64,000 nt of DNA from Candidatus Forterrea multitransposorum CG_2015-17_Forterrea_25_41 (GTDB taxonomy: Archaea > Iainarchaeota > Iainarchaeia > Iainarchaeales > CSSED10-239), in contig CP045477.1 of assembly GCA_009392915.1 (NCBI GenBank), forward strand, positions 544,001 to 608,000, written 5' to 3'. Below, piece by piece: positions 13,545 through 47,805 of the stretch. The translations under genes and the position numbers were made by a program. The notes under the pieces were generated by a model. The model saw only the letters and a list, made by a program, of their open reading frames with translations, had not been told where the DNA came from and did no database searches. Each line of letters starts with the position of its first letter. The stretch's first letter is position 1.

Positions 13545-14675
13545 TTATATTTTATGAGTATATACTTTATTAATATAATTATAGATTATTTTTGATTTAG
13601 AAGAATCTATTCCTTGTATTTTTGAAATATCAGATAAATTTAAACTTTTAATAGTTTTTAATGAATTTTGAGAATTAATTAAACTATTAATAGTTTTTTC
13701 ATCTATTTCTGTTATTTTAGAAAAAAATCTATAACCTCTAGGGAAATCAAATTCTTTTTGAGAAGTAAAATTTGAAAGTTCTAAGATATCTATTAACTTT
13801 TCTGTATCTGCAATTTTTCTAATACCTAGTTGTTTTAGAAAATTTATTTTTTCTAAACATTCTTCTTTTAGATATATATTGTTAGAATAATCTTTTAAAA
13901 TTAAATATAATTCTTCTTCAAGACCATATGTAATTTCATAAAAAGAATTAGAAATATCTTGACCTTGAGAACCAAGCTCTACTATTAAATCATCAACTTG
14001 AGTTTCATTTTTGAAAAAATATAAAATATTCTGTATTAAATCTAAAACTTCTGTTTTTAGATTATTTGATAAAATAATTTCTAAATCATATAAATTTTTA
14101 ATTTTTTTATCAATCTTTGATCTAAAATCTTTTAAATTGTTAATTGCATAACTTGCTTTTACCATTAAAATATTAAAATCTTGTAAAACATATTTTTGAT
14201 CTTTATAATAAAGAGAAATAACATTTCTTCTATGTGAAATTGCAATAACAGGTAAATCAGATTGCATTGCTGTTTGTTCAGCTGATCGATGTCTCATTCC
14301 TGTCTCTTTTGAAGAAATATCTCTATCTGGCATTAAATGTTTATTTGCACCTACAATCTTTGTTAAATCATTTGAAAGAACTATAGCTCCATCCATTTTT
14401 GAAAGTTCAAAAAGCTTTTGAGAAGAAAAAGGAATATCTAAATCAATTCCTCCTTTTAAAATAGGTTTTAACTTATCTGAATCACCTAAAACTATTAAAG
14501 CACCTAAGTTACCATGTAAAATTTCATCCAAACCACTCCTTAATTCTGTTCCAGGAGTTACAAGAGGGAGTATTTTAGTAATATCAATAACATCATTTTC
14601 ATGTATTTGACTGATTAATTTTGATTGAAAATCTTCTTCTTGAATAAAAACTTTTTTTTTTGGTCTTGTAGGCAT
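13545..14675 (-). CDS. DisA/DacZ-like diadenylate cyclase (c-di-AMP synthase, DAC domain)
   Basis: DAC motifs GALIVLGD, DGAIVLS, KHLMPDRD...ETGMRHRSAEQTA...LPVIAISHRRNVISLYY. The RHR motif and ISLYY closely match DisA-type DAC domains. Confidence 0.7.
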   Translation of the reverse strand: MPTRPKKKVFIQEEDFQSKLISQIHENDVIDITKILPLVTPGTELRSGLDEILHGNLGALIVLGDSDKLKPILKGGIDLDIPFSSQKLFELSKMDGAIVLSNDLTKIVGANKHLMPDRDISSKETGMRHRSAEQTAMQSDLPVIAISHRRNVISLYYKDQKYVLQDFNILMVKASYAINNLKDFRSKIDKKIKNLYDLEIILSNNLKTEVLDLIQNILYFFKNETQVDDLIVELGSQGQDISNSFYEITYGLEEELYLILKDYSNNIYLKEECLEKINFLKQLGIRKIADTEKLIDILELSNFTSQKEFDFPRGYRFFSKITEIDEKTINSLINSQNSLKTIKSLNLSDISKIQGIDSSKSKIIYNYINKVYTHKI

Positions 14676-29363: not shown

Positions 29364-31716
29364 GTTTAGGTTTCTTTTTAGAAGTTTTAGATTTAGAAAC
29401 TTCTTTTGGTTTTACTTCTTCTTTTTTCTTTGAAGGTTTAATTTTTGAAACTATTTTTTTAACACTTTTAATAGAATCACTTTTTTCATTTTCTAAAAGA
29501 AGTTTCTTTCTTTTCTCAAGTTCAAATATTTGTTTATCAATAATTTTCTTTTCAAAATCAACTGAAGCACTATCATAAATAGTTTTAGATTTAGAATCCT
29601 TTAAAACATCTTTATTTTTTATTCTTTCAAGCTCTAAAAGATATTTATCTCTCATTTCTTTATAAGTGAAAGGACTTATTTTTCCTTCAATTAATTTTTC
29701 ATCTAAATAACCTATTTGTTTAATTATTCCTTCCTTTGAATGATGTTTTTTAAATCTTTCAACTTCAAAGACAATTGTTAAAACCATTAAAAACAAAGCT
29801 GCAACAAATAAATAAAGATAAACATCTTTCTTCTCTTTTGAATAAATATAGATGTTTTGAGAAGAAGTTTCTTTTTCTTTACTTACATTTTCATCTTCAT
29901 CAGAAACAATAATTACAGAGCCTTGATTTGAAGAACTAATATCAATAACTAATGTTTCAAGATCTGTATTTAAATAATAATCAAGAACTATTTTTTCTGT
30001 TTCATAAAGATAATGTGCAAAATTAAGTATAGAGTTTGCAACATTTAATTGAGATTTTGCTTTTTCTTCATCTTTATTTTTATAGAAATCATGAGCATTT
30101 TTATAATAAATACCATGATCTAAGAAAGTTTTAGACCAAACATAATTTTCATTATTCATTGCACTTTGATTTCTTAAATCTTTAGTTAATTGATCATATT
30201 TAATATTAAAATCATTTAATGTAAAATTATTTTTACTGTCTTCTTGTGTTTTTATAACAGCTAAAGCAGTTGCTGAATCATAAAGTGAAGTTACATACCA
30301 TCCTCTTTGGTAATTAATCTTTGCAGCATTAAGTCTTCTTTTTAAATCTTCAGTATCTGCTATGTTTGGAGCAACTAAAATTAATTGATTTTCAACAGAT
30401 ATAATGCTTTCTTGTGCTTTTTCTTTAAAAAAGTTAGATTCTACAAACTTTAAATCATTATTTGTTGTAATTGATGCATCTAAAAAATCATTTGCAATTT
30501 CTGTCCATGCTAAAGCATAAGCATATTCTTGTATTTTTGAAAAATTATTTATAGTTTGCTTTTCTTTTAAAGATTCAACTTTATCTCTTGCCCAAGTAAT
30601 TCTTTGTCTTCCACCAACACACCATTCTAAATATTCAATTGAACAGTTGTTAGATCTGTTTTCTGTTAAAGTTATTTTTTCATCAAGTTCAGAAACTCTA
30701 AGATCAAAAATAATTGAAGAATCTGCTAAAATTGATGGATTTGTAATAATTTCTTCAACAGAGATTATATTAATATAAGCTAAAAAAGAATTATTTGCTG
30801 CTGAATAAAAATAATTATTTTCATAAAACTTTTTTGAATTTTCAACAAGTTCTTCAGAATAAGTAACTGTTGATAAAAGTGTATCTAGAACATCTAAATC
30901 TTTTATGTTAGAGGAAGATATTTTAGAATTAATTGAAGATAATTTTTCTTCAGTATTAAGAATATATTCTTCAGTTATTTTTTTTAAAGGTTCAACAGCT
31001 TTAGAATATTCAATTTTATTATAAACAAAATCATCTACTTTTTCTTCTTGAATAGAATTTACATCAATTGAAGAAACATCTTTAAAAGCATAATCTAGAA
31101 CATCATCAATAGTTGATACTTCAATAATCTTTAAACCCCATTCATTATAAGCATGCTCAATTAAATCAACTTGTTTAATTTCATCATCTTCATTAATCAC
31201 TTGAGATCTATTTCCTTGAGGTATGAAAAATAAATCAACACCTATTTCAGAAGCTTTTTTTGCTTTATAATAAATTCCACCAACATCTCCAATATATCCA
31301 TCAATTGAAATTGAACCAGTCATACTTACATTTTCAGGAACTGGAGAATCTTTAAACATTGAAATTATTAAGAGAGCCATTGCACCACCTGCAGATGGAC
31401 CATCTATAGTGTGTGCATTTGAAGTAATATCAACTGTAAAATCATACTCTTGCTTAATATCTTCTTTTATAACTGAATCTGCAACTGCAATTGCATTTTT
31501 AAAAGATTCTTGTGTTGAAGAACCTACTATTGATTCATCTATTGAAGAATATATTTTTCCAGTACCAGGTATAATTTTTACATTTAATTGTGCATCTTTT
31601 GCACTTGTTTCACCAGATACTGCGAAAATCTTCATATTAGCATCAGAAACTAATGCAAAAAGATTAGGCATTAAAAGTATTAAAAATAATAATATTGCAA
31701 TTGATTTAATTTTCAT
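29347..31716 (-). CDS. Secreted/membrane-anchored protein with a Lon-like S16 peptidase domain
   Basis: N-terminal signal peptide (MKIKSIAILLFLILLMPNLFAL). The Lon proteolytic domain IDGPSAGGAMALLIISMF...VSMTGSISIDGYIGDVGGIYYKAKKASEIGVDLFFIPQGN carries the catalytic Ser in DGPSAG and a downstream Lys. A large middle domain is followed by a C-terminal TM helix and a Lys-rich tail. 789 aa. Confidence 0.65.
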   Translation of the reverse strand: MKIKSIAILLFLILLMPNLFALVSDANMKIFAVSGETSAKDAQLNVKIIPGTGKIYSSIDESIVGSSTQESFKNAIAVADSVIKEDIKQEYDFTVDITSNAHTIDGPSAGGAMALLIISMFKDSPVPENVSMTGSISIDGYIGDVGGIYYKAKKASEIGVDLFFIPQGNRSQVINEDDEIKQVDLIEHAYNEWGLKIIEVSTIDDVLDYAFKDVSSIDVNSIQEEKVDDFVYNKIEYSKAVEPLKKITEEYILNTEEKLSSINSKISSSNIKDLDVLDTLLSTVTYSEELVENSKKFYENNYFYSAANNSFLAYINIISVEEIITNPSILADSSIIFDLRVSELDEKITLTENRSNNCSIEYLEWCVGGRQRITWARDKVESLKEKQTINNFSKIQEYAYALAWTEIANDFLDASITTNNDLKFVESNFFKEKAQESIISVENQLILVAPNIADTEDLKRRLNAAKINYQRGWYVTSLYDSATALAVIKTQEDSKNNFTLNDFNIKYDQLTKDLRNQSAMNNENYVWSKTFLDHGIYYKNAHDFYKNKDEEKAKSQLNVANSILNFAHYLYETEKIVLDYYLNTDLETLVIDISSSNQGSVIIVSDEDENVSKEKETSSQNIYIYSKEKKDVYLYLFVAALFLMVLTIVFEVERFKKHHSKEGIIKQIGYLDEKLIEGKISPFTYKEMRDKYLLELERIKNKDVLKDSKSKTIYDSASVDFEKKIIDKQIFELEKRKKLLLENEKSDSIKSVKKIVSKIKPSKKKEEVKPKEVSKSKTSKKKPKLKKDL

Positions 31717-31780
31717 GTTTTCTTCCTCTCAAATAAATAGTTTTCAATGTAATATATATTATATAATATTTATTTAAAGG

Positions 31781-32245
31781 TTACTTTTTCTTGTTTTTGA
31801 AAAGAAGATTAAATTTTTTAGTTGTAGAAAGAATATTTTTCCTTCCTTTTTTTTCAATTGAAATTAAATCTAGTTCTTTAAGTATTTTTAAGTCTTCAAA
31901 AGGTCTTTTCTTACTTATTTTTGATTGTTCAACAGGAGCATTTAAAGAAATAAAAGCTAAAGTTTTAAGTTCAGATTTTGAAAGAGTTGTTCCTGTTGCA
32001 AAAATATTAAAAGAATGGAATTCTGGTTTTACAACAATTTCTAATTTTTTATTATCTTTAACAATAGAAAGAGAAGTTTTTCTTTTATTATAATCATTGA
32101 TTAAATCATCTATCTGAATATCAATTATTTTTTTATCAATATTTGGAAATGAAGAATAAATTTTTGAAATTAAAGTTGATTTTGGAGATAGAAACAAAAT
32201 AGCTTCAATTGCTTGTTTTAAATAATCACTACTTGTTTGGTCCAT
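31781..32245 (-). CDS. scpB: ScpB-like segregation/condensation protein (winged helix)
   Basis: The N-terminus LKQAIEAILFLSPKSTLISKI resembles the ScpB EALLF motif. The size (154 aa) is compatible with archaeal ScpB. Confidence 0.4.
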   Translation of the reverse strand: MDQTSSDYLKQAIEAILFLSPKSTLISKIYSSFPNIDKKIIDIQIDDLINDYNKRKTSLSIVKDNKKLEIVVKPEFHSFNIFATGTTLSKSELKTLAFISLNAPVEQSKISKKRPFEDLKILKELDLISIEKKGRKNILSTTKKFNLLFKNKKK

Positions 32246-32266
32246 TATAAATCACATGTTAAAAAA

Positions 32267-33043
32267 TTATTCTCTTTTTGCAGTTAATGTTTCATTACGT
32301 GCAGGCATTATGTAAACAAAATAATCTCCCTCTGAAACTTTATCTCCAGTAGATTTTTCAATCCAATAAACAGTAGAGTCATCTTCTGATTGACTTAAAA
32401 AACTTATAGATCCGTGAACCACATCACCTGTTTGATATTCTCCAGCTCCATTAAGAATAGGTTGAGAGATTCCAGTATCATTTTCTAAAGTTAAAGTATA
32501 AGTTTCTGGCTCAGAAGATTCTGCTTGAAAAATTGCAGTAACTGATTTATTTTGAGTCATTGTAACGTCACAATTTATAGCAGCAGTATCACAATTTCCA
32601 GTCCATCCTTGAAAAGTATTTCCTTCAGATGCATTTGCATTTAAAGTAACTGAAGTTCCTGAAGAATAATTTTGAGAACAATCAGTTCCACAATTAATAC
32701 CTACTGGATTTGAAGTTACAGTTCCATTTCCAGAAACATTAACAGTTAATGTATAATTTTCAGGATCTGGTTCATCTGGTTCATCTGGTTCATCTGGTTC
32801 AGGATCTTCTCCTCCAGGATTAGGATTAACATTATCTATTTCTTCAACTTGAGAAGAATCATTTAAATCTTCAATAAACCCATCAACTGTTGAATCTATT
32901 CCTTCATTAATTTTGTCAGATTGACTTACTTTCTCATTTGAAAAATTAATAAAGGTTGTTGCAAGAACAATTGTACCTAAGACTAAAACACCAACTATAA
33001 TTACCATTTCTAAAGAAACTTGAGCTTTTTTATTTTGAATCAT
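32267..33043 (-). CDS. DUF361-type archaeal type IV pilin-like protein with Flg_new-like repeats
   Basis: Class III signal peptide MIQNKKA|QVSLEMVIIVGVLVLGTIVLATTF (Q at +1, E at +5). A (PDE)n linker. Repeats with GINCGT(D/N)CS...GTSVTL...G(N/H)xFxGW, as in Listeria-Bacteroides (Flg_new) repeats. Confidence 0.7.
   Translation of the reverse strand: MIQNKKAQVSLEMVIIVGVLVLGTIVLATTFINFSNEKVSQSDKINEGIDSTVDGFIEDLNDSSQVEEIDNVNPNPGGEDPEPDEPDEPDEPDPENYTLTVNVSGNGTVTSNPVGINCGTDCSQNYSSGTSVTLNANASEGNTFQGWTGNCDTAAINCDVTMTQNKSVTAIFQAESSEPETYTLTLENDTGISQPILNGAGEYQTGDVVHGSISFLSQSEDDSTVYWIEKSTGDKVSEGDYFVYIMPARNETLTAKRE
32764..32800. repeat. 9-bp tandem repeat (about 4 units, TCTGGTTCA) encoding a (PDE)n linker in the pilin-like gene
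   Basis: ggatctggttcatctggttcatctggttcatctggttcagg is seen directly. It encodes EPDEPDEPDEPDP on the minus strand. Confidence 0.8.
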
Positions 33044-33072
33044 ATTTATTCTTATTTTATATTTTTATAATA

Positions 33073-35190
33073 TTATTCTAAGCCACCATCAGTAATAGTC
33101 CAATTATAATTATTAATTAATATATTTTTTGCATCAACTGCAGAACTATCATAATTAACTGCTGTTGCACCTAATGTAACATTACTTTTTAAATTAGTTA
33201 AATTTGACCATCTAATTAAAATATTAGAATAATTTACAGTAGATAATGCATAATCAAACATATGAGCCATATCAGTTACATTTGAAACATCCCATGCACT
33301 AATATCTTGATCAAAACAAATATCAGAAATACTAAAGAAACATTGAAACATTCTGTTCATATTTGTAACATTTGAAACATCCCACATACTTATATTTTGA
33401 TTAAATGAATAATTATTATAAAACATAGAAGACATATCAGTTACATTTGAAACATCCCAATTATTCAATGGTTGATTAAATCTAGTACATCTAAACATTG
33501 CAGCCATATTAGTTACATTTGAAACATCCCAATTATTTATAGAAGTATTAGTCCATGAAAATACACCATTATTTGGAGGACTACTTACACTACAATTTTG
33601 ATAACCACTAAAAGTTCCTGCTAAATTTGTAATTCCGTTTAAATCAGGAACATCAGTTGCAGTTACAACTAAATTTGTAGCTCCAGAGAAATAATATCCA
33701 CTATTTCCAAATTTTAAATTACCCCATTGACTAATTTCAGTTAATTTTAATTTATCTCCAGAATTATTAAACCTAAAACCTTCAATAAAACCTGTTATGA
33801 TTACATCATATATCCCAGAACTTGAATATGTGTGAGTTTTATCAGGATCACTATAACTTGTAACCTCTGATGTAGTTCCATCTCCCCAATAAACTTTAAA
33901 ATTATAATTATTACTATAAAGAGAAGCAGAATCTAAAGGTAATGTAATTTGATTTGCATTTGAAGAACCAGTACTAATTTTTGTAGTATCCCATTTAGAT
34001 ATAAATGCATCTGAAGTAGGTATAAAATTTGCAGTTAAATTCACATTACTTGAAGGCATTGTATAACTAAATGAAGGATCTGTACTTACTACAGTACCAT
34101 TTTGATCAATCCAATTTACATAAGAAAATTCAGCAATAGAAGAGACAGATATATTTGCAACATCTCCAGGATTATAATTTCCTGCACCATTTAAACTAAT
34201 ATTTACTGAATCTGGATTTTCAATTAAATTTAAATTATAAGCAACAGGCAAACTAAAAGTTGCAGTTACATTTTTAACTTCAGTCATAGAAACAGAACAA
34301 CTAATTTGAGGTCCAGAACAATCCCCAGACCATCCTTCAAAAACATATCCTGAAACTGGAGTTGCATTTAATTGAACAGATTGTTGATCAGGAAAAGTTG
34401 CAGAACAGTTTGTTTGAGATTCTAAACAATTAATTCCAGAAGGATAAGTTTCAACAGTTCCTCCAATTGTTTTAGTTAAATTTAAAGTATAACTGTTTGG
34501 AAGATTAAAAGTTGCAGTTACATTTCTTGCTTGAGTCATGGAAACTGTACAAGTAAGATTAGTTCCTGAACAAGCACCTGACCATCCACCAAAACTATGA
34601 CCAGTAACAGGATTTGCAGTTAAAGTAACTGAAGTGCCTGAAGAATAATTTTCAGAACAATTAGTTCCACAATTAATACCAGAAGGATTTGAAGTCACAG
34701 TTCCATTTCCCGCACCACTTAAAGATACATTTAAAGTATAAGTTGATGGAGCAGTTGATGAAAAATTTGCAGTTAAAGAAGTATTTGAATTTAAATTAAA
34801 AGTATATGGATTTGTGGAAAGTGAACCTGTTGGAGTTGTCCAATTATTAAAAGTATAACCTGAAAGAGCAGTTGCAGTTGCAGTAACTGAAGTTCCACAA
34901 CTAAAAGTTCCAGCTCCTGAAACAGTACCACCTGCTGGAGGGTTTGAAGATAAAGTTAAAACACAATTACTACCAACACCTGAAATTGGTTCATAATCTT
35001 CAGGATTTGTTAAATCTTTAATAAAACCATCAATTGTTGAATTTGTAGCAGCATCAATTTCTCCTGCTTGATCTACTTTTTCATTTGTAAATCCAATTAA
35101 AATAGTTGCTAAAATAACAGCACCTAAAATCAAAACACCAATAATAATTATCATCTCTAAAGAGACTTGAGCTTTTTTACTTTTATTCAT
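33073..35190 (-). CDS. Large DUF361-type pilin-like adhesin with Flg_new-like repeats and BspA/DUF285-like C-terminal repeats
   Basis: The class III signal is MNKSKKA|QVSLEMIIIIGVL. The ORF-track start at 35265 adds a 25-aa Lys-rich extension that is probably untranslated. Four repeats have the form ...NPSGINCGTNCSENYSSGTSVTLTANPVTGHSFGGWSG... C-terminal 25-aa repeats are NWDVSNVT(N/D)M(A/S)xMF. Many NxT/S sequons. Confidence 0.7.
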   Translation of the reverse strand: MNKSKKAQVSLEMIIIIGVLILGAVILATILIGFTNEKVDQAGEIDAATNSTIDGFIKDLTNPEDYEPISGVGSNCVLTLSSNPPAGGTVSGAGTFSCGTSVTATATALSGYTFNNWTTPTGSLSTNPYTFNLNSNTSLTANFSSTAPSTYTLNVSLSGAGNGTVTSNPSGINCGTNCSENYSSGTSVTLTANPVTGHSFGGWSGACSGTNLTCTVSMTQARNVTATFNLPNSYTLNLTKTIGGTVETYPSGINCLESQTNCSATFPDQQSVQLNATPVSGYVFEGWSGDCSGPQISCSVSMTEVKNVTATFSLPVAYNLNLIENPDSVNISLNGAGNYNPGDVANISVSSIAEFSYVNWIDQNGTVVSTDPSFSYTMPSSNVNLTANFIPTSDAFISKWDTTKISTGSSNANQITLPLDSASLYSNNYNFKVYWGDGTTSEVTSYSDPDKTHTYSSSGIYDVIITGFIEGFRFNNSGDKLKLTEISQWGNLKFGNSGYYFSGATNLVVTATDVPDLNGITNLAGTFSGYQNCSVSSPPNNGVFSWTNTSINNWDVSNVTNMAAMFRCTRFNQPLNNWDVSNVTDMSSMFYNNYSFNQNISMWDVSNVTNMNRMFQCFFSISDICFDQDISAWDVSNVTDMAHMFDYALSTVNYSNILIRWSNLTNLKSNVTLGATAVNYDSSAVDAKNILINNYNWTITDGGLE
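33271..33540. repeat. Four copies of a roughly 75-bp periodic repeat (core agttacatttgaaacatccca) within the large adhesin gene
   Basis: Near-identical 25-30 nt cores at about 33271, 33364, 33436 and 33509. They encode the repeated NWDVSNVTxMxxMF units. Confidence 0.75.
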
Positions 35191-35279
35191 ATCTTTATCC
35201 ACTTTTTTTACTTTTTTAGATTTTATTATTTTTTTAGATTTAATTTTTTTAACTTCTTTTTTCATAAATATCTTTTCTC

Positions 35280-35663
35280 TTAATTAAAATTTGCTGTAAT
35301 ACCAGTATTAAAATTTAAATCAAAATAGAATATTTCAGTTTTGCTCATAATAGCTCCAGAAGAATCTTTCCAGTTTAAGAAACTATGACCTGTAGCAGGA
35401 ACAGCTTCTACTCTTACTTGAGTTCCACAAGCAAAACTACCATCTCCTTTAACAGTGCCAGCATCTTGAGGATTTACTGAAATTACTAGATTACAAATAA
35501 AGTTATCAACAATTTCATCTGTTTGTTTATTAATTGCATTAGATTGATCTGCTTTTGAAGAAGACATATTAATAACAATTGTTGCAAGAATAATTGTCCC
35601 TAAAACTAAAACACCAACGATAATCATCATTTCTAAAGAAACTTGAGCTTTTTTATTTATCAT
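35280..35663 (-). CDS. DUF361-type type IV pilin-like protein (short, with one Flg_new-like unit)
   Basis: MINKKA|QVSLEMMIIVGVLVLGTIILATIV, plus ...GTVKGDGSFACGTQVRVEAVPATGHSFLNWKD. Confidence 0.7.
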   Translation of the reverse strand: MINKKAQVSLEMMIIVGVLVLGTIILATIVINMSSSKADQSNAINKQTDEIVDNFICNLVISVNPQDAGTVKGDGSFACGTQVRVEAVPATGHSFLNWKDSSGAIMSKTEIFYFDLNFNTGITANFN

Positions 35664-35778
35664 AAAATATAATCCTTTAATTATAAATATAATATAAATA
35701 TAAATACATAATATATATAAATGTATTTGTTATAGAAGAATAAGTAAATAGTTTTAAAGATAAATAATTTTAAAGATC

Positions 35779-36444
35779 TTAAATAACTTTTATAAAAATC
35801 TCAGAAAAGAAATCATCTTGCCAAACATTTATCTTCTGATCTTGATGAAGAAATAAAAGAGGAATAAATAAATTATTAACAATATCAAAATTATCAATAT
35901 TTTTTGAAAAAAGATTTTTAAAAGTTAAACAACCTTCCTTATCTGCTTCTTTTTTAATTGAAGAAAAAAGAGAATCAATTCTTAAGTTAATATCTTCAGT
36001 TGATTTTGGAACAAAAAATTCAACTTCTGCTTTTTCTTTAATCATTTTTTCAATGTTTTTTTTAGTTGGTTTATTCATTATAGTATCTATTGCTTCAATT
36101 AAATCATCTAAAGAAACTTGACTTTCTTTATTTCTAATTGGATTTTCTAAGTTTAAAGCATTAAGTAAAATATCATCTTCTTTAGGTATTATTAAATCAT
36201 CTTCAGGATCAATACTTGAAAGCTTTAAAGTATATGTTTTAATTTTAAGAAGAATACTTGCAGCTAGAAGTGCATTTGCAGGAATCATTAAATTTTCTTC
36301 TTTAAACTCTATTATTTTTTTTAAATAGAGATCTGTAAGAGAAATAATATCAATATTCCAAATATCAAAATCATTTGATTTTACAAGATCAAACAAAAGT
36401 AGTTTCCAGTTTGGTTGATCTATAATGTTTACTAATTCTTCCAT
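35779..36444 (-). CDS. scpA: ScpA-like kleisin (segregation and condensation protein A)
   Basis: The N-terminus WKLLLFDLVKSNDFDIWNIDIISLTDLYLKKIIEF...IPANALLAASILLKIKT matches the ScpA N-terminal pattern LDLLL.LI....DI.DI.I..IT.QYL.Y......L..A...LVMAA.L..IKS. Confidence 0.5.
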   Translation of the reverse strand: MEELVNIIDQPNWKLLLFDLVKSNDFDIWNIDIISLTDLYLKKIIEFKEENLMIPANALLAASILLKIKTYTLKLSSIDPEDDLIIPKEDDILLNALNLENPIRNKESQVSLDDLIEAIDTIMNKPTKKNIEKMIKEKAEVEFFVPKSTEDINLRIDSLFSSIKKEADKEGCLTFKNLFSKNIDNFDIVNNLFIPLLFLHQDQKINVWQDDFFSEIFIKVI

Positions 36445-36496
36445 ATATAAAAGATATCTTCAAAAAAGAATAAAAAGAGAAAGGTTTTTTAGTTTT

Positions 36497-37180
36497 TTAA
36501 TCTTCTAAAACCTTTGCATTAAAATTGTTTGCTTCAATATCACATAATTTAATTTTTTTACTTTGGCCTTCAATATATAAAACAGTATCTTTTTCAAAGT
36601 AAATTGTTACAGAATCACAAACTAATCTAAACCTTACAGATTTAGATTTTAGTAATTCATCAAAAATTAAATCTATATTTTCTGAAAAAACTATAATATC
36701 TATTCCTTGTTTTTTACCTTTAATTTTTGTTGAAATTTCATTTAAATCAATAGTTCCAACAACATTAAACTTTAAAATAAACTCTTTAATATCAAATGAA
36801 GAAATTAATTTTTGAATATATTCTTTAGCTTTTATAGTGTCTGAAAAGATATATGTTCTATAAGCTCTATATTTTTCAAAAAACTTATCAGCTTCACCCA
36901 TTTCTTTATAAAAACTATCCATTTCTTCTTTAATATTTGAAACTGTTGAATTCATTTTCTTAAAAAGAGAAATTAATTCTCTCTTATTAATTTCAGATTC
37001 TATATCTTTTTCTAAATATTCATTCTTTTTAACAATATCATTAATTTCTTTATAGTCATTTATAAGACTATTTAAAATATCATGAAGTGGATTGTAAAGC
37101 TCTAAAACCTTATTTGTTCTATATAGATTTTTATTTAAAGACTCAAAAGACTTTTTAACTTTATTATTAATATCAACCAT
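36497..37180 (-). CDS. Hypothetical coiled-coil protein
   Basis: 227 aa, helical and charged. Confidence 0.35.
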   Translation of the reverse strand: MVDINNKVKKSFESLNKNLYRTNKVLELYNPLHDILNSLINDYKEINDIVKKNEYLEKDIESEINKRELISLFKKMNSTVSNIKEEMDSFYKEMGEADKFFEKYRAYRTYIFSDTIKAKEYIQKLISSFDIKEFILKFNVVGTIDLNEISTKIKGKKQGIDIIVFSENIDLIFDELLKSKSVRFRLVCDSVTIYFEKDTVLYIEGQSKKIKLCDIEANNFNAKVLED

Positions 37181-45122: not shown

Positions 45123-46760
45123 ATGAATCCTATAAAAGATTTAAAAACTGCATCTGAAAAGATAAAACAAAATAGTGAAAAACTAAAAGATGACTTTATT
45201 AATTATAAATATATATTAAATCAGATTAAGCAGATTATAGATTTTCAAGACGCTTTAATTGACCCTTTAAAATCACAAAAGAAAATTTTAAAGAAAATAA
45301 TTAAAAGAAATAAAAATACTGAGTATGGTAAAAAATATTCTTTTTCTAAAATAAAAACTATTGAAGATTTTCAAAAACAAGTACCAATTATAAAATATAA
45401 TGATATTTCAGAAGATATTGAAGAGATAAAAAAAGGAAAACAAAATATTTTTACTAGAGACAAAGTAGTATACTTTGCATCAACCTCAGGAACTACAAGT
45501 AAGATTAAACTTATACCTGTTACGAAGCAAAGAATAAAAAATTATAATAAAGAATTTGCTTTATGGGCTGTATATGTTCTAAAAGATTATGTGAAAATTG
45601 CAAATGGAAAAACACTTTATTTTGCAGGACCTTATTTTGAAGGTAAAACAAAAGGTAAAATACCATATGGTAGTATCTCTGGATACCTTCCTTTTAAATC
45701 ACCTTGGTATGTTAAAAAGAAAATATCAAATCCAATAAATGTTTATAACGAAATGAATTTTAATAAAAAAATTAAAAAAATGGCAATCCATGCACTCCAA
45801 GAAAATATAACCCAAATTGCTTTCACAGCACCAATTGAAGCCATTCTTTTTTTAGATTATATAAAAGAAAATAAAACTAAATTAATAAAAATAATTAAAA
45901 AGAAAAATTCTAAAAGAGCAGAATATCTATCCAAAATTGATGATTTTAAAGCGATTAATATTTGGCCAAATATAGGACTTGTAAGTTGTTTTAGATCAAA
46001 GACAAATGAAATGTATATTGACACATTAATGAAAAAAATTGGTAAAAAAATTGAAATTAGAGATCCAGGTATAAATGCTTCTGAAGGTAGAATATCTATT
46101 GGTATATCAAAAGATGGTATTTCAGGAGTATTTCCATTAAATACAACTTTTTTTGAATTTATTGATTTTAATAAAGAAAAAAAAGAAATAATTACAGTAG
46201 ATAAATTAAAATTAAATAGAAAATATAAAGTAATAATTACAACTCAAGAAGGACTATATAGATATGATATGGGAGATGTTGTAAAAGTAACCAGTTTCTT
46301 TAAAAAGATTCCTGAAATTAAATTTTTTACAAGAGAAAATTATCTTAATATCGCAGGAGAACTTGCATATGAAGATGAAATTGTTAAAGCTTTAAAAAAA
46401 TCTTTCACAGAAGAAAATTTTAAAATTAAATACTACACTGTAATTCCATATCTTAAAGATCTTTCAAAAAAACCAAGATATGAAATATTACTTGATCTTG
46501 AAGAAAATAAAACTGAAAAAGAAATTATAAAACTAAAAGAAAAAATAGATTTAAATCTTAAAGAAACAATAAACGACTACAAACAAATGAGAGAAGAGTT
46601 TGGAAGAATGGATATGCCAGTTATATCTATTCTTGAAAAAAATAGTTATGATGAATTTAATAAAAAAAGAGTTGTAGGCTCTGGAAATCCAAAACCAATA
46701 AATATACATCCTGAGCAGAATTTTAGAGAAAATTTTAAAATAAAGAAAACATATGAATAA
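45123..46760 (+). CDS. GH3-like acyl-adenylate-forming amido ligase (ANL superfamily)
   Basis: 545 aa. GH3-type motif VVYFASTSGTTSKIKLIPVT (SSGTT-like P-loop), then YGSISGY and the typical GH3 length and organisation. Confidence 0.55.
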   Translation: MNPIKDLKTASEKIKQNSEKLKDDFINYKYILNQIKQIIDFQDALIDPLKSQKKILKKIIKRNKNTEYGKKYSFSKIKTIEDFQKQVPIIKYNDISEDIEEIKKGKQNIFTRDKVVYFASTSGTTSKIKLIPVTKQRIKNYNKEFALWAVYVLKDYVKIANGKTLYFAGPYFEGKTKGKIPYGSISGYLPFKSPWYVKKKISNPINVYNEMNFNKKIKKMAIHALQENITQIAFTAPIEAILFLDYIKENKTKLIKIIKKKNSKRAEYLSKIDDFKAINIWPNIGLVSCFRSKTNEMYIDTLMKKIGKKIEIRDPGINASEGRISIGISKDGISGVFPLNTTFFEFIDFNKEKKEIITVDKLKLNRKYKVIITTQEGLYRYDMGDVVKVTSFFKKIPEIKFFTRENYLNIAGELAYEDEIVKALKKSFTEENFKIKYYTVIPYLKDLSKKPRYEILLDLEENKTEKEIIKLKEKIDLNLKETINDYKQMREEFGRMDMPVISILEKNSYDEFNKKRVVGSGNPKPINIHPEQNFRENFKIKKTYE

Positions 46761-47805
46761 ATATTTTTCAGAAAACTATTTTCAAGCAAGAGAAAAATTT
46801 AGAAAAAGTACAGCTAAACTTAAGAAAAGTAATTATCATATAATTGATGATTTAACTATTGATGTTGCTGAAAGCCATCCTAAAAAAAAAGAAAAACTAT
46901 TAATTATAATTTCAGGAACTCATGGAGTAGAAGGATATGTTGGAAGTGCTTTTCAATTATTTTTTATTGATAAATATCTATCTAAAATTAAAGATAAATA
47001 TGGGATATTATTAATTCATTCTCTAAATCCTTATGGTTTTAAAAATAATAGAAGATACAATGAAAATAATGTTGATCTAAATAGAAACAATAACAAAGAC
47101 TTTTCAAAAATTAATTATTTTTTTAATAAAAATAAATTATTTAAAGAAGAAAATATATTTAATATTAAAAGAGCATTTCTAAGTGATAATTTTGAAAGAA
47201 TCAGATATAATTTACTATTGTACAAATTAATTTTAAAGCATGGAATATCTAAAACAATACAATTAATTGGACATGGACAAAATAAATATCCTAAAGGGTT
47301 ATGTTATTCAGGAAAAAATAAAGAAAAATCAATCTTATTTTTAGATAAAAAAATAAAAGAAATAACTAAAGATTATAAAGAAACAATATTAATTGATGTT
47401 CATACTGGAGCTGCAAAAAAATATAATTTAGATATATTTACTGCAAATAAACTAAATGAAATTAAAATAGATGTTCCTTTTAAGTCAACAAACACTAAAA
47501 AAAAAGGAACTGATCATATTGGTGGAATTGAGAATAGTTTGTTTGAAAATTCAAAATCAAAAAAAAATATTCATTTCACTTTAGAGTTTGGAACAATAAA
47601 TAAATATTCAACAGTAATCTCTCTAAATTATCTTAGTTATTTATTGTTTAAAGAAAATCAAATAACAAACTTTGGACCTTTTGAAAAAATACCAAAAATT
47701 AGACAAAAAATGAAAAAAGCTTATTTTCCAGAAAATAAAAAATTTAAAGAAAATATGTTAAAAAAAACAAAAGACTTTTTAGAAAGAATTATAAATTATC
47801 AATAG
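46753..47805 (+). CDS. M14-like zinc carboxypeptidase / AstE-AspA (DUF2817-like) family protein
   Basis: LLIIISGTHGVEGYVGS matches the GxHGxE zinc-binding motif of succinylglutamate desuccinylase/aspartoacylase and DUF2817 proteins, with downstream His (DVHTG). It overlaps the GH3-like gene by 8 nt. Confidence 0.5.
   Translation: MNKYFSENYFQAREKFRKSTAKLKKSNYHIIDDLTIDVAESHPKKKEKLLIIISGTHGVEGYVGSAFQLFFIDKYLSKIKDKYGILLIHSLNPYGFKNNRRYNENNVDLNRNNNKDFSKINYFFNKNKLFKEENIFNIKRAFLSDNFERIRYNLLLYKLILKHGISKTIQLIGHGQNKYPKGLCYSGKNKEKSILFLDKKIKEITKDYKETILIDVHTGAAKKYNLDIFTANKLNEIKIDVPFKSTNTKKKGTDHIGGIENSLFENSKSKKNIHFTLEFGTINKYSTVISLNYLSYLLFKENQITNFGPFEKIPKIRQKMKKAYFPENKKFKENMLKKTKDFLERIINYQ

Follow-up and report, generated by a model that had tools for sequence, protein, structure and literature searches.

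Mosaic repeat modules in adjacent pilin-like genes of a DPANN archaeon point to recurrent segmental exchange

Introduction

How do two adjacent genes come to share a segment of about 100 nucleotides that is nearly identical at the DNA level, when the repeat units around it are much more diverged? This question is raised by two pilin-like genes, here called gene A and gene B, in a 64,000-nucleotide stretch of Candidatus Forterrea multitransposorum (contig CP045477.1, positions 544,001 to 608,000; "the window" denotes this whole stretch throughout, and coordinates refer to it unless otherwise indicated). The window has a guanine-plus-cytosine (GC) content of 23% and carries the archaeal genes TFIIB, ScpA/ScpB, and Lon; the closest named genome is that of Candidatus Iainarchaeum sp. 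STF1_257, a DPANN archaeon. Together with a smaller gene C, genes A and B form a run of three tightly spaced minus-strand genes (C, B, A) between scpA and scpB. Comparison of these genes with one another and with their counterparts in related lineages indicates that the locus has been shaped, on an evolutionary scale, by recurrent segmental exchange among its repeat modules.

Results

Genes A and B share a near-identical segment within a diverged repeat

The shared segment lies within a repeat module of the Flg_new_2 family that is found in both genes. The features on which the comparison is based are as follows.

32267–33043, minus strand: gene A, 258 amino acids; class III signal peptide, an (EPD)n linker of acidic character, and a single Flg_new_2 unit besides a degenerate second beta domain
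33073–35265, minus strand: gene B, an open reading frame (ORF) of 730 amino acids; class III signal peptide, four Flg_new_2 units (U1–U4), and a C-terminal DUF285/PARCEL repeat domain
32516–32758, minus strand: whole Flg_new_2 unit of gene A, amino acids 96–176
34501–34746, minus strand: unit U2 of gene B, amino acids 174–255 of the 730-amino-acid ORF
34249–34494, minus strand: unit U3 of gene B, paralogous to U2 but more distant
32633–32731, minus strand: copy 1 of the segment, core of the gene A Flg_new_2 unit, encoding GNGTVTSNPVGINCGTDCSQNYSSGTSVTLNAN; 90 of 99 nucleotides match copy 2
34612–34710, minus strand: copy 2 of the segment, core of gene B unit U2, encoding GNGTVTSNPSGINCGTNCSENYSSGTSVTLTAN

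The best ungapped block between the two genes pairs 32633–32731 with 34612–34710 at an offset of 1979 (90.9% identity), and its matching positions fall into exact runs of 7, 16, 16, 8, 18, 11, and 14 nucleotides. An earlier note on this DNA had reported two near-identical segments here; both are present, but their register required correction, in that the start of the first copy lies one base further along than had been written. At the offset of 1979, 32641–32735 and 34620–34714 agree at 85 of 95 bases. The "handful" of differences given in the earlier note consisted of four single-base changes and passed over a cluster of four nucleotides (CTAC/AGAA on the plus strand). Its description of the surrounding repeat as much more diverged was borne out, with the flanks of the segment in the same domain reaching 54% and 52% identity when aligned without gaps, as compared to 90.9% in the block, and 58–70% when aligned by codon.

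In a sliding comparison of gene A with gene B (median diagonal 36), the best 96-nucleotide window matched at 87 of 96 positions, at 32633/34612. The runner-up, in the N-terminal signal-peptide region, matched at 75 of 96, followed by 65 of 96 between the gene A unit and unit 3 of gene B; the top window within gene B likewise reached 75 of 96. When the codons of gene A were shuffled 50 times, the best 96-nucleotide windows averaged 52.6 matches with a maximum of 57. The self-comparison proposed earlier therefore sets the segment apart from the other repeat units (87 of 96 as compared to at most 75 of 96).

Codon identity in the core exceeds the level expected from protein constraint

An explanation that involves no recombination is that the island represents the most constrained part of the domain, with AT-biased codon usage making the codons agree. 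The encoded motif, GNGTVTSxPxGINCGxDCSxNYSSGTSVTLxA, is the consensus of the domain family and recurs in many unrelated bacterial proteins, such that amino acid similarity alone says little. Few codons are used in this 23% GC genome, and the core is conserved in all lineages. However, a test of codon identity that conditions on identical residues and on codon usage still detected a marked excess. The cores of gene A and U2 use the same codon at 26 of their 29 identical residues, where 15.3 would be expected from genome codon usage (P = 1.1e-5) and 17.1 from the codon usage of the pilin genes (P = 1e-4). The same test was at chance for the rest of the unit (12 of 18, with 11.5 expected) and for gene A or U2 as compared to U3. 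Between gene A and U2 in the window genome, synonymous divergence (dS) was 0.17 for the core, as compared to 0.68 over the remainder of the unit. The excess of shared codons and the lower dS of the core indicate a more recent DNA ancestry for the core than for its flanks, and the DNA identity of the segment was confirmed to go beyond protein conservation and codon bias. Constraint in the absence of recombination is accordingly considered unlikely; it also leaves unexplained the tracts shared across paralogues, the shared rare TCC codon, and an allele with a replaced core, all of which are described below.

A second island of high identity between paralogues was observed at the N-terminal signal-peptide/helix region of genes C and A (35563–35658 and 32940–33035, 85 of 96 nucleotides). 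The same codon is used there at 32 of 38 positions, as compared to 21.4 expected (P = 1.4e-4).

Related lineages carry the same locus

Six related loci were compared with the lineage of the window genome (W): L075, nearly identical to the window; STF1_257 (L002 and L003; hereafter STF); L070; L071 (= L072 and L074); L077; and L080. Alignments were codon-based over the gene A units and the U2 and U3 units of gene B. A metagenome scan for the core pattern returned only four stretches, with one new lineage (L077), and a scan of genome contigs returned one related species representative, STF1_257, the remaining matches being distant bacterial B-repeat proteins. A protein search with the proximal part of gene B yielded only multi-repeat bacterial proteins and no further orthologues, and a scan of viral contigs for the core arm gave no match. 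The L071 type was found in 14 contigs, and a second assembly, L076, also contains the L070 gene B.

Repeat units are mosaics across paralogues and lineages

Between-lineage variation in the proximal part of gene B is concentrated in and around a short tract within the segment, which has a counterpart in gene A.

34660–34691, minus strand: hypervariable micro-tract in copy 2, SNPS-GINC-GTN; peak of between-lineage diversity in proximal gene B
32681–32712, minus strand: corresponding micro-tract in copy 1, SNPV-GINC-GTD; haplotypes of other lineages match gene B haplotypes

Nucleotide diversity (pi) between lineages was 0.10–0.17 at 34740–34651, as compared to a baseline of 0–0.03 elsewhere in proximal gene B. 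Several tracts cross the boundary between paralogues. The 3′ tract of the STF gene A unit (alignment nucleotides 201–246) is that of U2, including the rare codon TCC (1–2% usage), and a runs test on polymorphic sites supported this tract (p = 0.0008; Bonferroni 0.02). The micro-tract haplotype AGT AAT CCT GGA ATA AAT TGT GGA TCT is common to gene A of L071 and to gene B of both L070 and STF, with a single difference in 51 nucleotides between L071 gene A and U2 of L070. Unit U3 of STF and of L077 bears a U2-type patch (TCA GGT GCT). Nearest neighbours change between paralogues from segment to segment, including in the micro-tract.

Groupings among the gene A alleles also conflict by block, with sharp boundaries: the 5′ edge joins W, L077, and STF, and the middle block joins W, L077, and L070. 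Gene A of L080 (L080 231–1010) contains a sharply bounded tract of ∼180 nucleotides (codons about 121–180), core included, that is 35–50% different from all other alleles and is flanked by L077-like sequence. In coding sense, the 3′ half of the W gene A unit (32516–32632, NASEGNTFQGWTGNCDTAAINCDVTMTQNKSVTAIF) is a divergent block specific to W and L077. Part of the contrast between the island and its surroundings in W is due to this divergent replacement.

Mosaics of this kind could in principle be produced by metagenome assembly across repeated or strain-variable sequence. The STF1_257 assembly is broken into two contigs exactly at U2, and L080 has a coverage of only about 2.4x. The STF1_257 contig ends (L002 1–235 and L003 6840–7078) overlap by about 233 nucleotides and differ only in a 21-nucleotide micro-tract (TSSPL versus TSSNP), implying two coexisting haplotypes or strains. 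However, the W and L071 haplotypes are found again, unchanged, in many independent assemblies of differing origin, gene B of L070 is recovered again in L076, and the longest exact run between genes A and B in the window is 18 nucleotides, shorter than assembler k-mers. An assembly artefact is therefore regarded as very unlikely. As a separate observation, metagenome assemblies break at the shared core and variable micro-tract, STF1_257 being an example.

The locus is strongly over-diverged relative to neighbouring genes

Gene A and the distal part of gene B are strongly over-diverged relative to the neighbouring genes. As compared to the window, flanking genes of the other lineages showed dS of 0.03–0.13 and nonsynonymous divergence (dN) of at most 0.01, while gene A showed dS of 0.24–0.36 and dN of 0.13–0.24. 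The pilin-type proteins of the locus evolve tens of times faster than their neighbours. Within gene A, the ratio of dN to dS (omega) was about 0.1 at the N terminus and 0.45–1.15 in unit 1; unit 2 falls into two allele classes, with omega of 1.2–2.0 among W, L077, and L070, which belong to one class.

The distal part of gene B (33073–34500) is a cassette that has been swapped between lineages, with the junction located directly after U2 (...NVTATFNLP). In W and STF, the cassette comprises U3–U4 and the DUF285/PARCEL domain; L077 (327–2897) carries the same arrangement expanded to 856 amino acids. In L070 (3480–4986), L071, and L080, the cassette instead consists of a Fib_succ_major domain (PF09603) and an extra B-repeat. 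In L077, the position directly upstream of gene B that gene C occupies in other lineages is taken by the end of a different gene (L077 1–326, ...YPKYGTEKVRCVRN*), indicating that the cluster varies in gene content as well.

These rates bear on a second explanation, in which the gene A unit is a fairly recent duplicate of U2 whose flanks diverged by point mutation under diversifying selection, with no later exchange. Codon identity between gene A and U2 is above chance over the whole unit, beyond the core, in STF, L070, and L071, and omega values in the variable parts approach or exceed 1, as such a history would predict. Synonymous divergence, however, is also high in the variable parts (0.66–0.68, as compared to 0.11–0.17 in the core, for W and L077), and between-lineage dS in the gene A units is 3–5x that of neighbouring genes. 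Together with the sharp block boundaries and the conflicting groupings between blocks, these values make duplication followed by point mutation alone an improbable account.

Comparison with programmed variation systems

A hypervariable micro-tract between invariant arms, and the presence of two micro-tract haplotypes in one sample (STF1_257), are reminiscent of programmed high-frequency antigenic variation of the Neisseria pilE/pilS type or of a diversity-generating retroelement. However, 37 contigs encode an identical W-type gene B protein, and 84 collection blocks index the W-type gene A protein (24 contigs read). Programmed variation is accordingly given hardly any weight. Because the W proteins are identical across assemblies, the consensus assemblies show no high-frequency switching, and the antigenic or adhesive variation proposed in the earlier note goes beyond what they record.

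Two specific candidates were considered and rejected. A Neisseria-like cassette system is not matched by the locus, in which all three genes are full-length ORFs with start codons and signal peptides and no silent copies were seen. No further module copies were found in the 64-kb window outside genes A, B, and C, and no guanine quadruplex (G4)-like motif was found in 31700–36500. A diversity-generating retroelement was rejected since neither the 30 window ORFs scanned nor the Pfam tables covering the locus ±10 kb revealed a reverse transcriptase family, and mismatches between the copies are not adenine-specific (G/T, T/C, G/A, and C/G occur besides A/N).

Gene cluster and protein architecture

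Two further features complete the description of the cluster.

35280–35663, minus strand: gene C, 127 amino acids; class III signal peptide and one Flg_new_2 unit; 97–98% amino acid identity between lineages
32765–32801, minus strand: perfect 9-bp tandem repeat ATCTGGTTC, 4.1 copies, encoding the (EPD)n linker of gene A

All three proteins matched PF18998 (divergent InlB B-repeat, Flg_new_2) above its cut-off of 23.6 bits: gene A with 50.5 bits (E = 2.1e-13), gene B with 147.6 bits over four stretches (E = 1e-43), and gene C with 49.0 bits. Matches to the TIGR02543 repeat were also found. The C-terminal part of gene B matched PF03382 (175 bits, E = 4e-52) and TIGR02167 (52.7 bits) and was assigned to the DUF285/PARCEL 26-residue repeat. 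The linker repeat of gene A varies in copy number by lineage, with one copy fewer in L075, two more in L077, and a shorter DPD form in L070 and L071.

The N terminus of gene A reads MIQNKKAQ|VSLEM followed by a hydrophobic helix, and KKAQVSLEM followed by VIIVGVLVLGTIVLATTFI or an equivalent is present in A, B, and C. By the criteria applied for class III signal peptides (basic residues near the N terminus, a cleavage motif of the form [KR][GA]-Q with an acidic residue at +5, and a hydrophobic helix of ~20 residues), no other ORF in the window qualifies. The reading of genes A and B in the earlier note as adjacent paralogues was upheld, with pilin-type signal peptides and PF18998 domains common to all three genes. 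Matches to the archaeal type IV pilin-like family PF04021 were below its cut-off of 23.7 bits for gene A (17.6 bits) and gene C (19.6 bits), and gene B had none. In an AlphaFold 2 (AF2) model of gene A, two beta domains were predicted confidently at residues 96–174 (pLDDT about 95) and 182–257, and the N terminus was of low confidence; a fold search of this model against the PDB returned weak tandem-beta matches only (template modelling score about 0.2; Gram-positive pilins and SdrD). The three proteins may be pilus-borne pilins or adhesins.

The first 25 codons of the gene B ORF (35191–35265) form a Lys-rich N-terminal extension that is probably untranslated. Genes A and C begin right at the signal peptide and lack such an extension. 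In L077, the extension is replaced and interrupted by stop codons, which makes the ATG at 35190 the likely true start of gene B, giving a protein of 705 amino acids.

Other observations in the window

The condensin-complex genes scpA and scpB are normally neighbours. In all related lineages recovered, scpB and scpA (31781–32245 and 35779–36444 in the window) are separated by the three pilin-like genes. Elsewhere in the window, a DisA-type diadenylate cyclase (DAC) with DAC and DisA-linker domains is encoded at 13545–14675; this domain architecture is associated with bacteria. At 45123–47805, a DUF2817 gene comes after a gene of the GH3 family (acyl-acid amido synthetase-like); such a pairing would not be expected in an archaeal genome of small size.

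Discussion

We consider it probable that the B-repeat modules of genes A and B exchange short conversion tracts by non-allelic homologous recombination, in addition to allelic exchange between strains. The segment is the common core of two paralogous Flg_new_2 modules: U2 in gene B and, in gene A, the only unit that is well formed. The amino acid sequence of this core is the family consensus, kept by structural constraint, and its identity at synonymous sites would arise from short-tract gene conversion between the modules, with allele exchange between strains acting alongside. Individual units are mosaics in which the 5′ edge and middle block are paralogue-specific, the almost invariant arms of the core can act as homology anchors, and the micro-tract of 20–30 nucleotides and the 3′ part are shuffled among gene A, U2, and U3 and among lineages. 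RadA-type recombination may be the agent, and the resulting variation may be under selection, through host or surface recognition or through escape from viruses. Short-patch conversion is documented in Sulfolobus, and gene conversion is efficient in Haloferax. Conversion in the latter genus is the subject of one report (PMC11276520).

Several observations weigh against conversion between the two genes, or limit its reach. The A/B pair of the window genome itself was not significant in the runs test (p = 0.18), so that direct support for transfer from paralogue to paralogue comes from the sister lineages. Among these, the tract shared by L071 gene A and L070 U2 had an uncorrected p of 0.025 and was not significant after correction. 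The core is about equally similar between gene A and U2 in all five lineages, and its similarity may thus largely predate the split of the lineages as opposed to reflecting a recent event. No donor was found for the NASEGNTFQGWTGNCDTAAINCDVTMTQNKSVTAIF block of W and L077: neither the rest of the window nor a protein search yielded a similar sequence. Only five or six lineages were sampled, two of which are represented by single, partly low-coverage assemblies. Finally, no pilus ATPase, platform protein, or prepilin peptidase was found among the 30 window ORFs scanned with Pfam or in the gene table of the locus ±10 kb.

The earlier note had attributed the segment to recent gene conversion or recombination between the paralogues. 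Exchange as such is retained, given tracts across five other lineages and variability at the locus that far exceeds that of neighbouring genes, but the qualifier "recent" is not: the W pair differs at 9% of sites, and its core dS of 0.17 is at least as large as the between-lineage divergence in flanking genes.

Among known systems, the closest functional analogue is conversion between complete paralogous adhesin genes, such as babA/babB of Helicobacter pylori. In that species, the paralogous adhesin genes babA/babB and sabA/sabB swap segments by gene conversion (PMC4552749). As at the present locus, both babA and babB are complete, potentially expressed paralogues encoding surface adhesins in one genome, segments are transferred by homologous recombination, mosaic alleles differ between strains, and 5′ ends are conserved. 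In contrast, the Helicobacter genes encode bacterial outer-membrane proteins, are dispersed, and undergo conversion that has been seen experimentally during infection, whereas the archaeal genes are adjacent, encode class III signal peptides and InlB-B-repeat modules, and have an exchange history deduced from comparative sequence.

The Neisseria pilE/pilS system (PMC4023411, PMC13321361) also involves type IV pilin-family genes with a conserved N-terminal region, hypervariable mini-cassettes between conserved stretches, and variation by gene conversion. It differs in its promoterless silent cassettes, unidirectional transfer, dedicated initiating elements, and high frequency within a clone, none of which was found here. 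In addition, the variable part of the archaeal proteins is an appended beta-domain module and not the pilin globular head as in Neisseria.

Among archaea, class III N-termini fused to adhesin-like beta-rich domains are described for type IV filament systems of several groups, including DPANN, in a recent preprint (bioRxiv 10.64898/2026.04.22.720090). The present proteins resemble these in their K-K-A-Q|V-S-L-E motif followed by a hydrophobic helix. Unlike archaeal filament loci, the cluster has no ATPase, platform protein, or signal peptidase among the 30 window ORFs scanned and is located between scpA and scpB. The passages of the same preprint on adhesins, DPANN, and recombination hold nothing on mosaic or recombining pilin genes. 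Adhesin-like proteins with Flg_new or InlB B-repeats, thought to mediate binding, are reported from host-associated archaea and bacteria in PMC9723798 (with Ebbes et al. 2011 cited therein); these surface proteins share the repeat superfamily of genes A, B, and C, but no pilin-type signal peptides or conversion between paralogues are reported for them. Literature searches gave no report, whether for DPANN or for archaea more widely, of pilin gene conversion, recombining pilin-like genes, or hypervariable surface proteins.

A more tentative possibility is that members of the DPANN Iainarchaeum group diversify adhesins presented on pili. They might do so by segmental gene conversion among InlB-B-repeat modules and by swapping of distal domains (DUF285/PARCEL versus Fib_succ_major), affecting how host cells or surfaces are recognised or how pilus-targeting viruses are evaded, with the core arms as recombination anchors around a cysteine-bracketed hypervariable loop. 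If true, this would be an archaeal counterpart of the adhesin and pilin variation systems of bacteria. Recombination among paralogous adhesin genes is a well-known strategy in bacteria, and the advance would be taxonomic and ecological as opposed to conceptual. DPANN archaea are believed to live attached to other cells. A fast-evolving locus that combines module shuffling with exchange of distal binding domains is a concrete candidate for the apparatus by which they recognise their partners and may serve as a marker for strain-level interactions with hosts or viruses.

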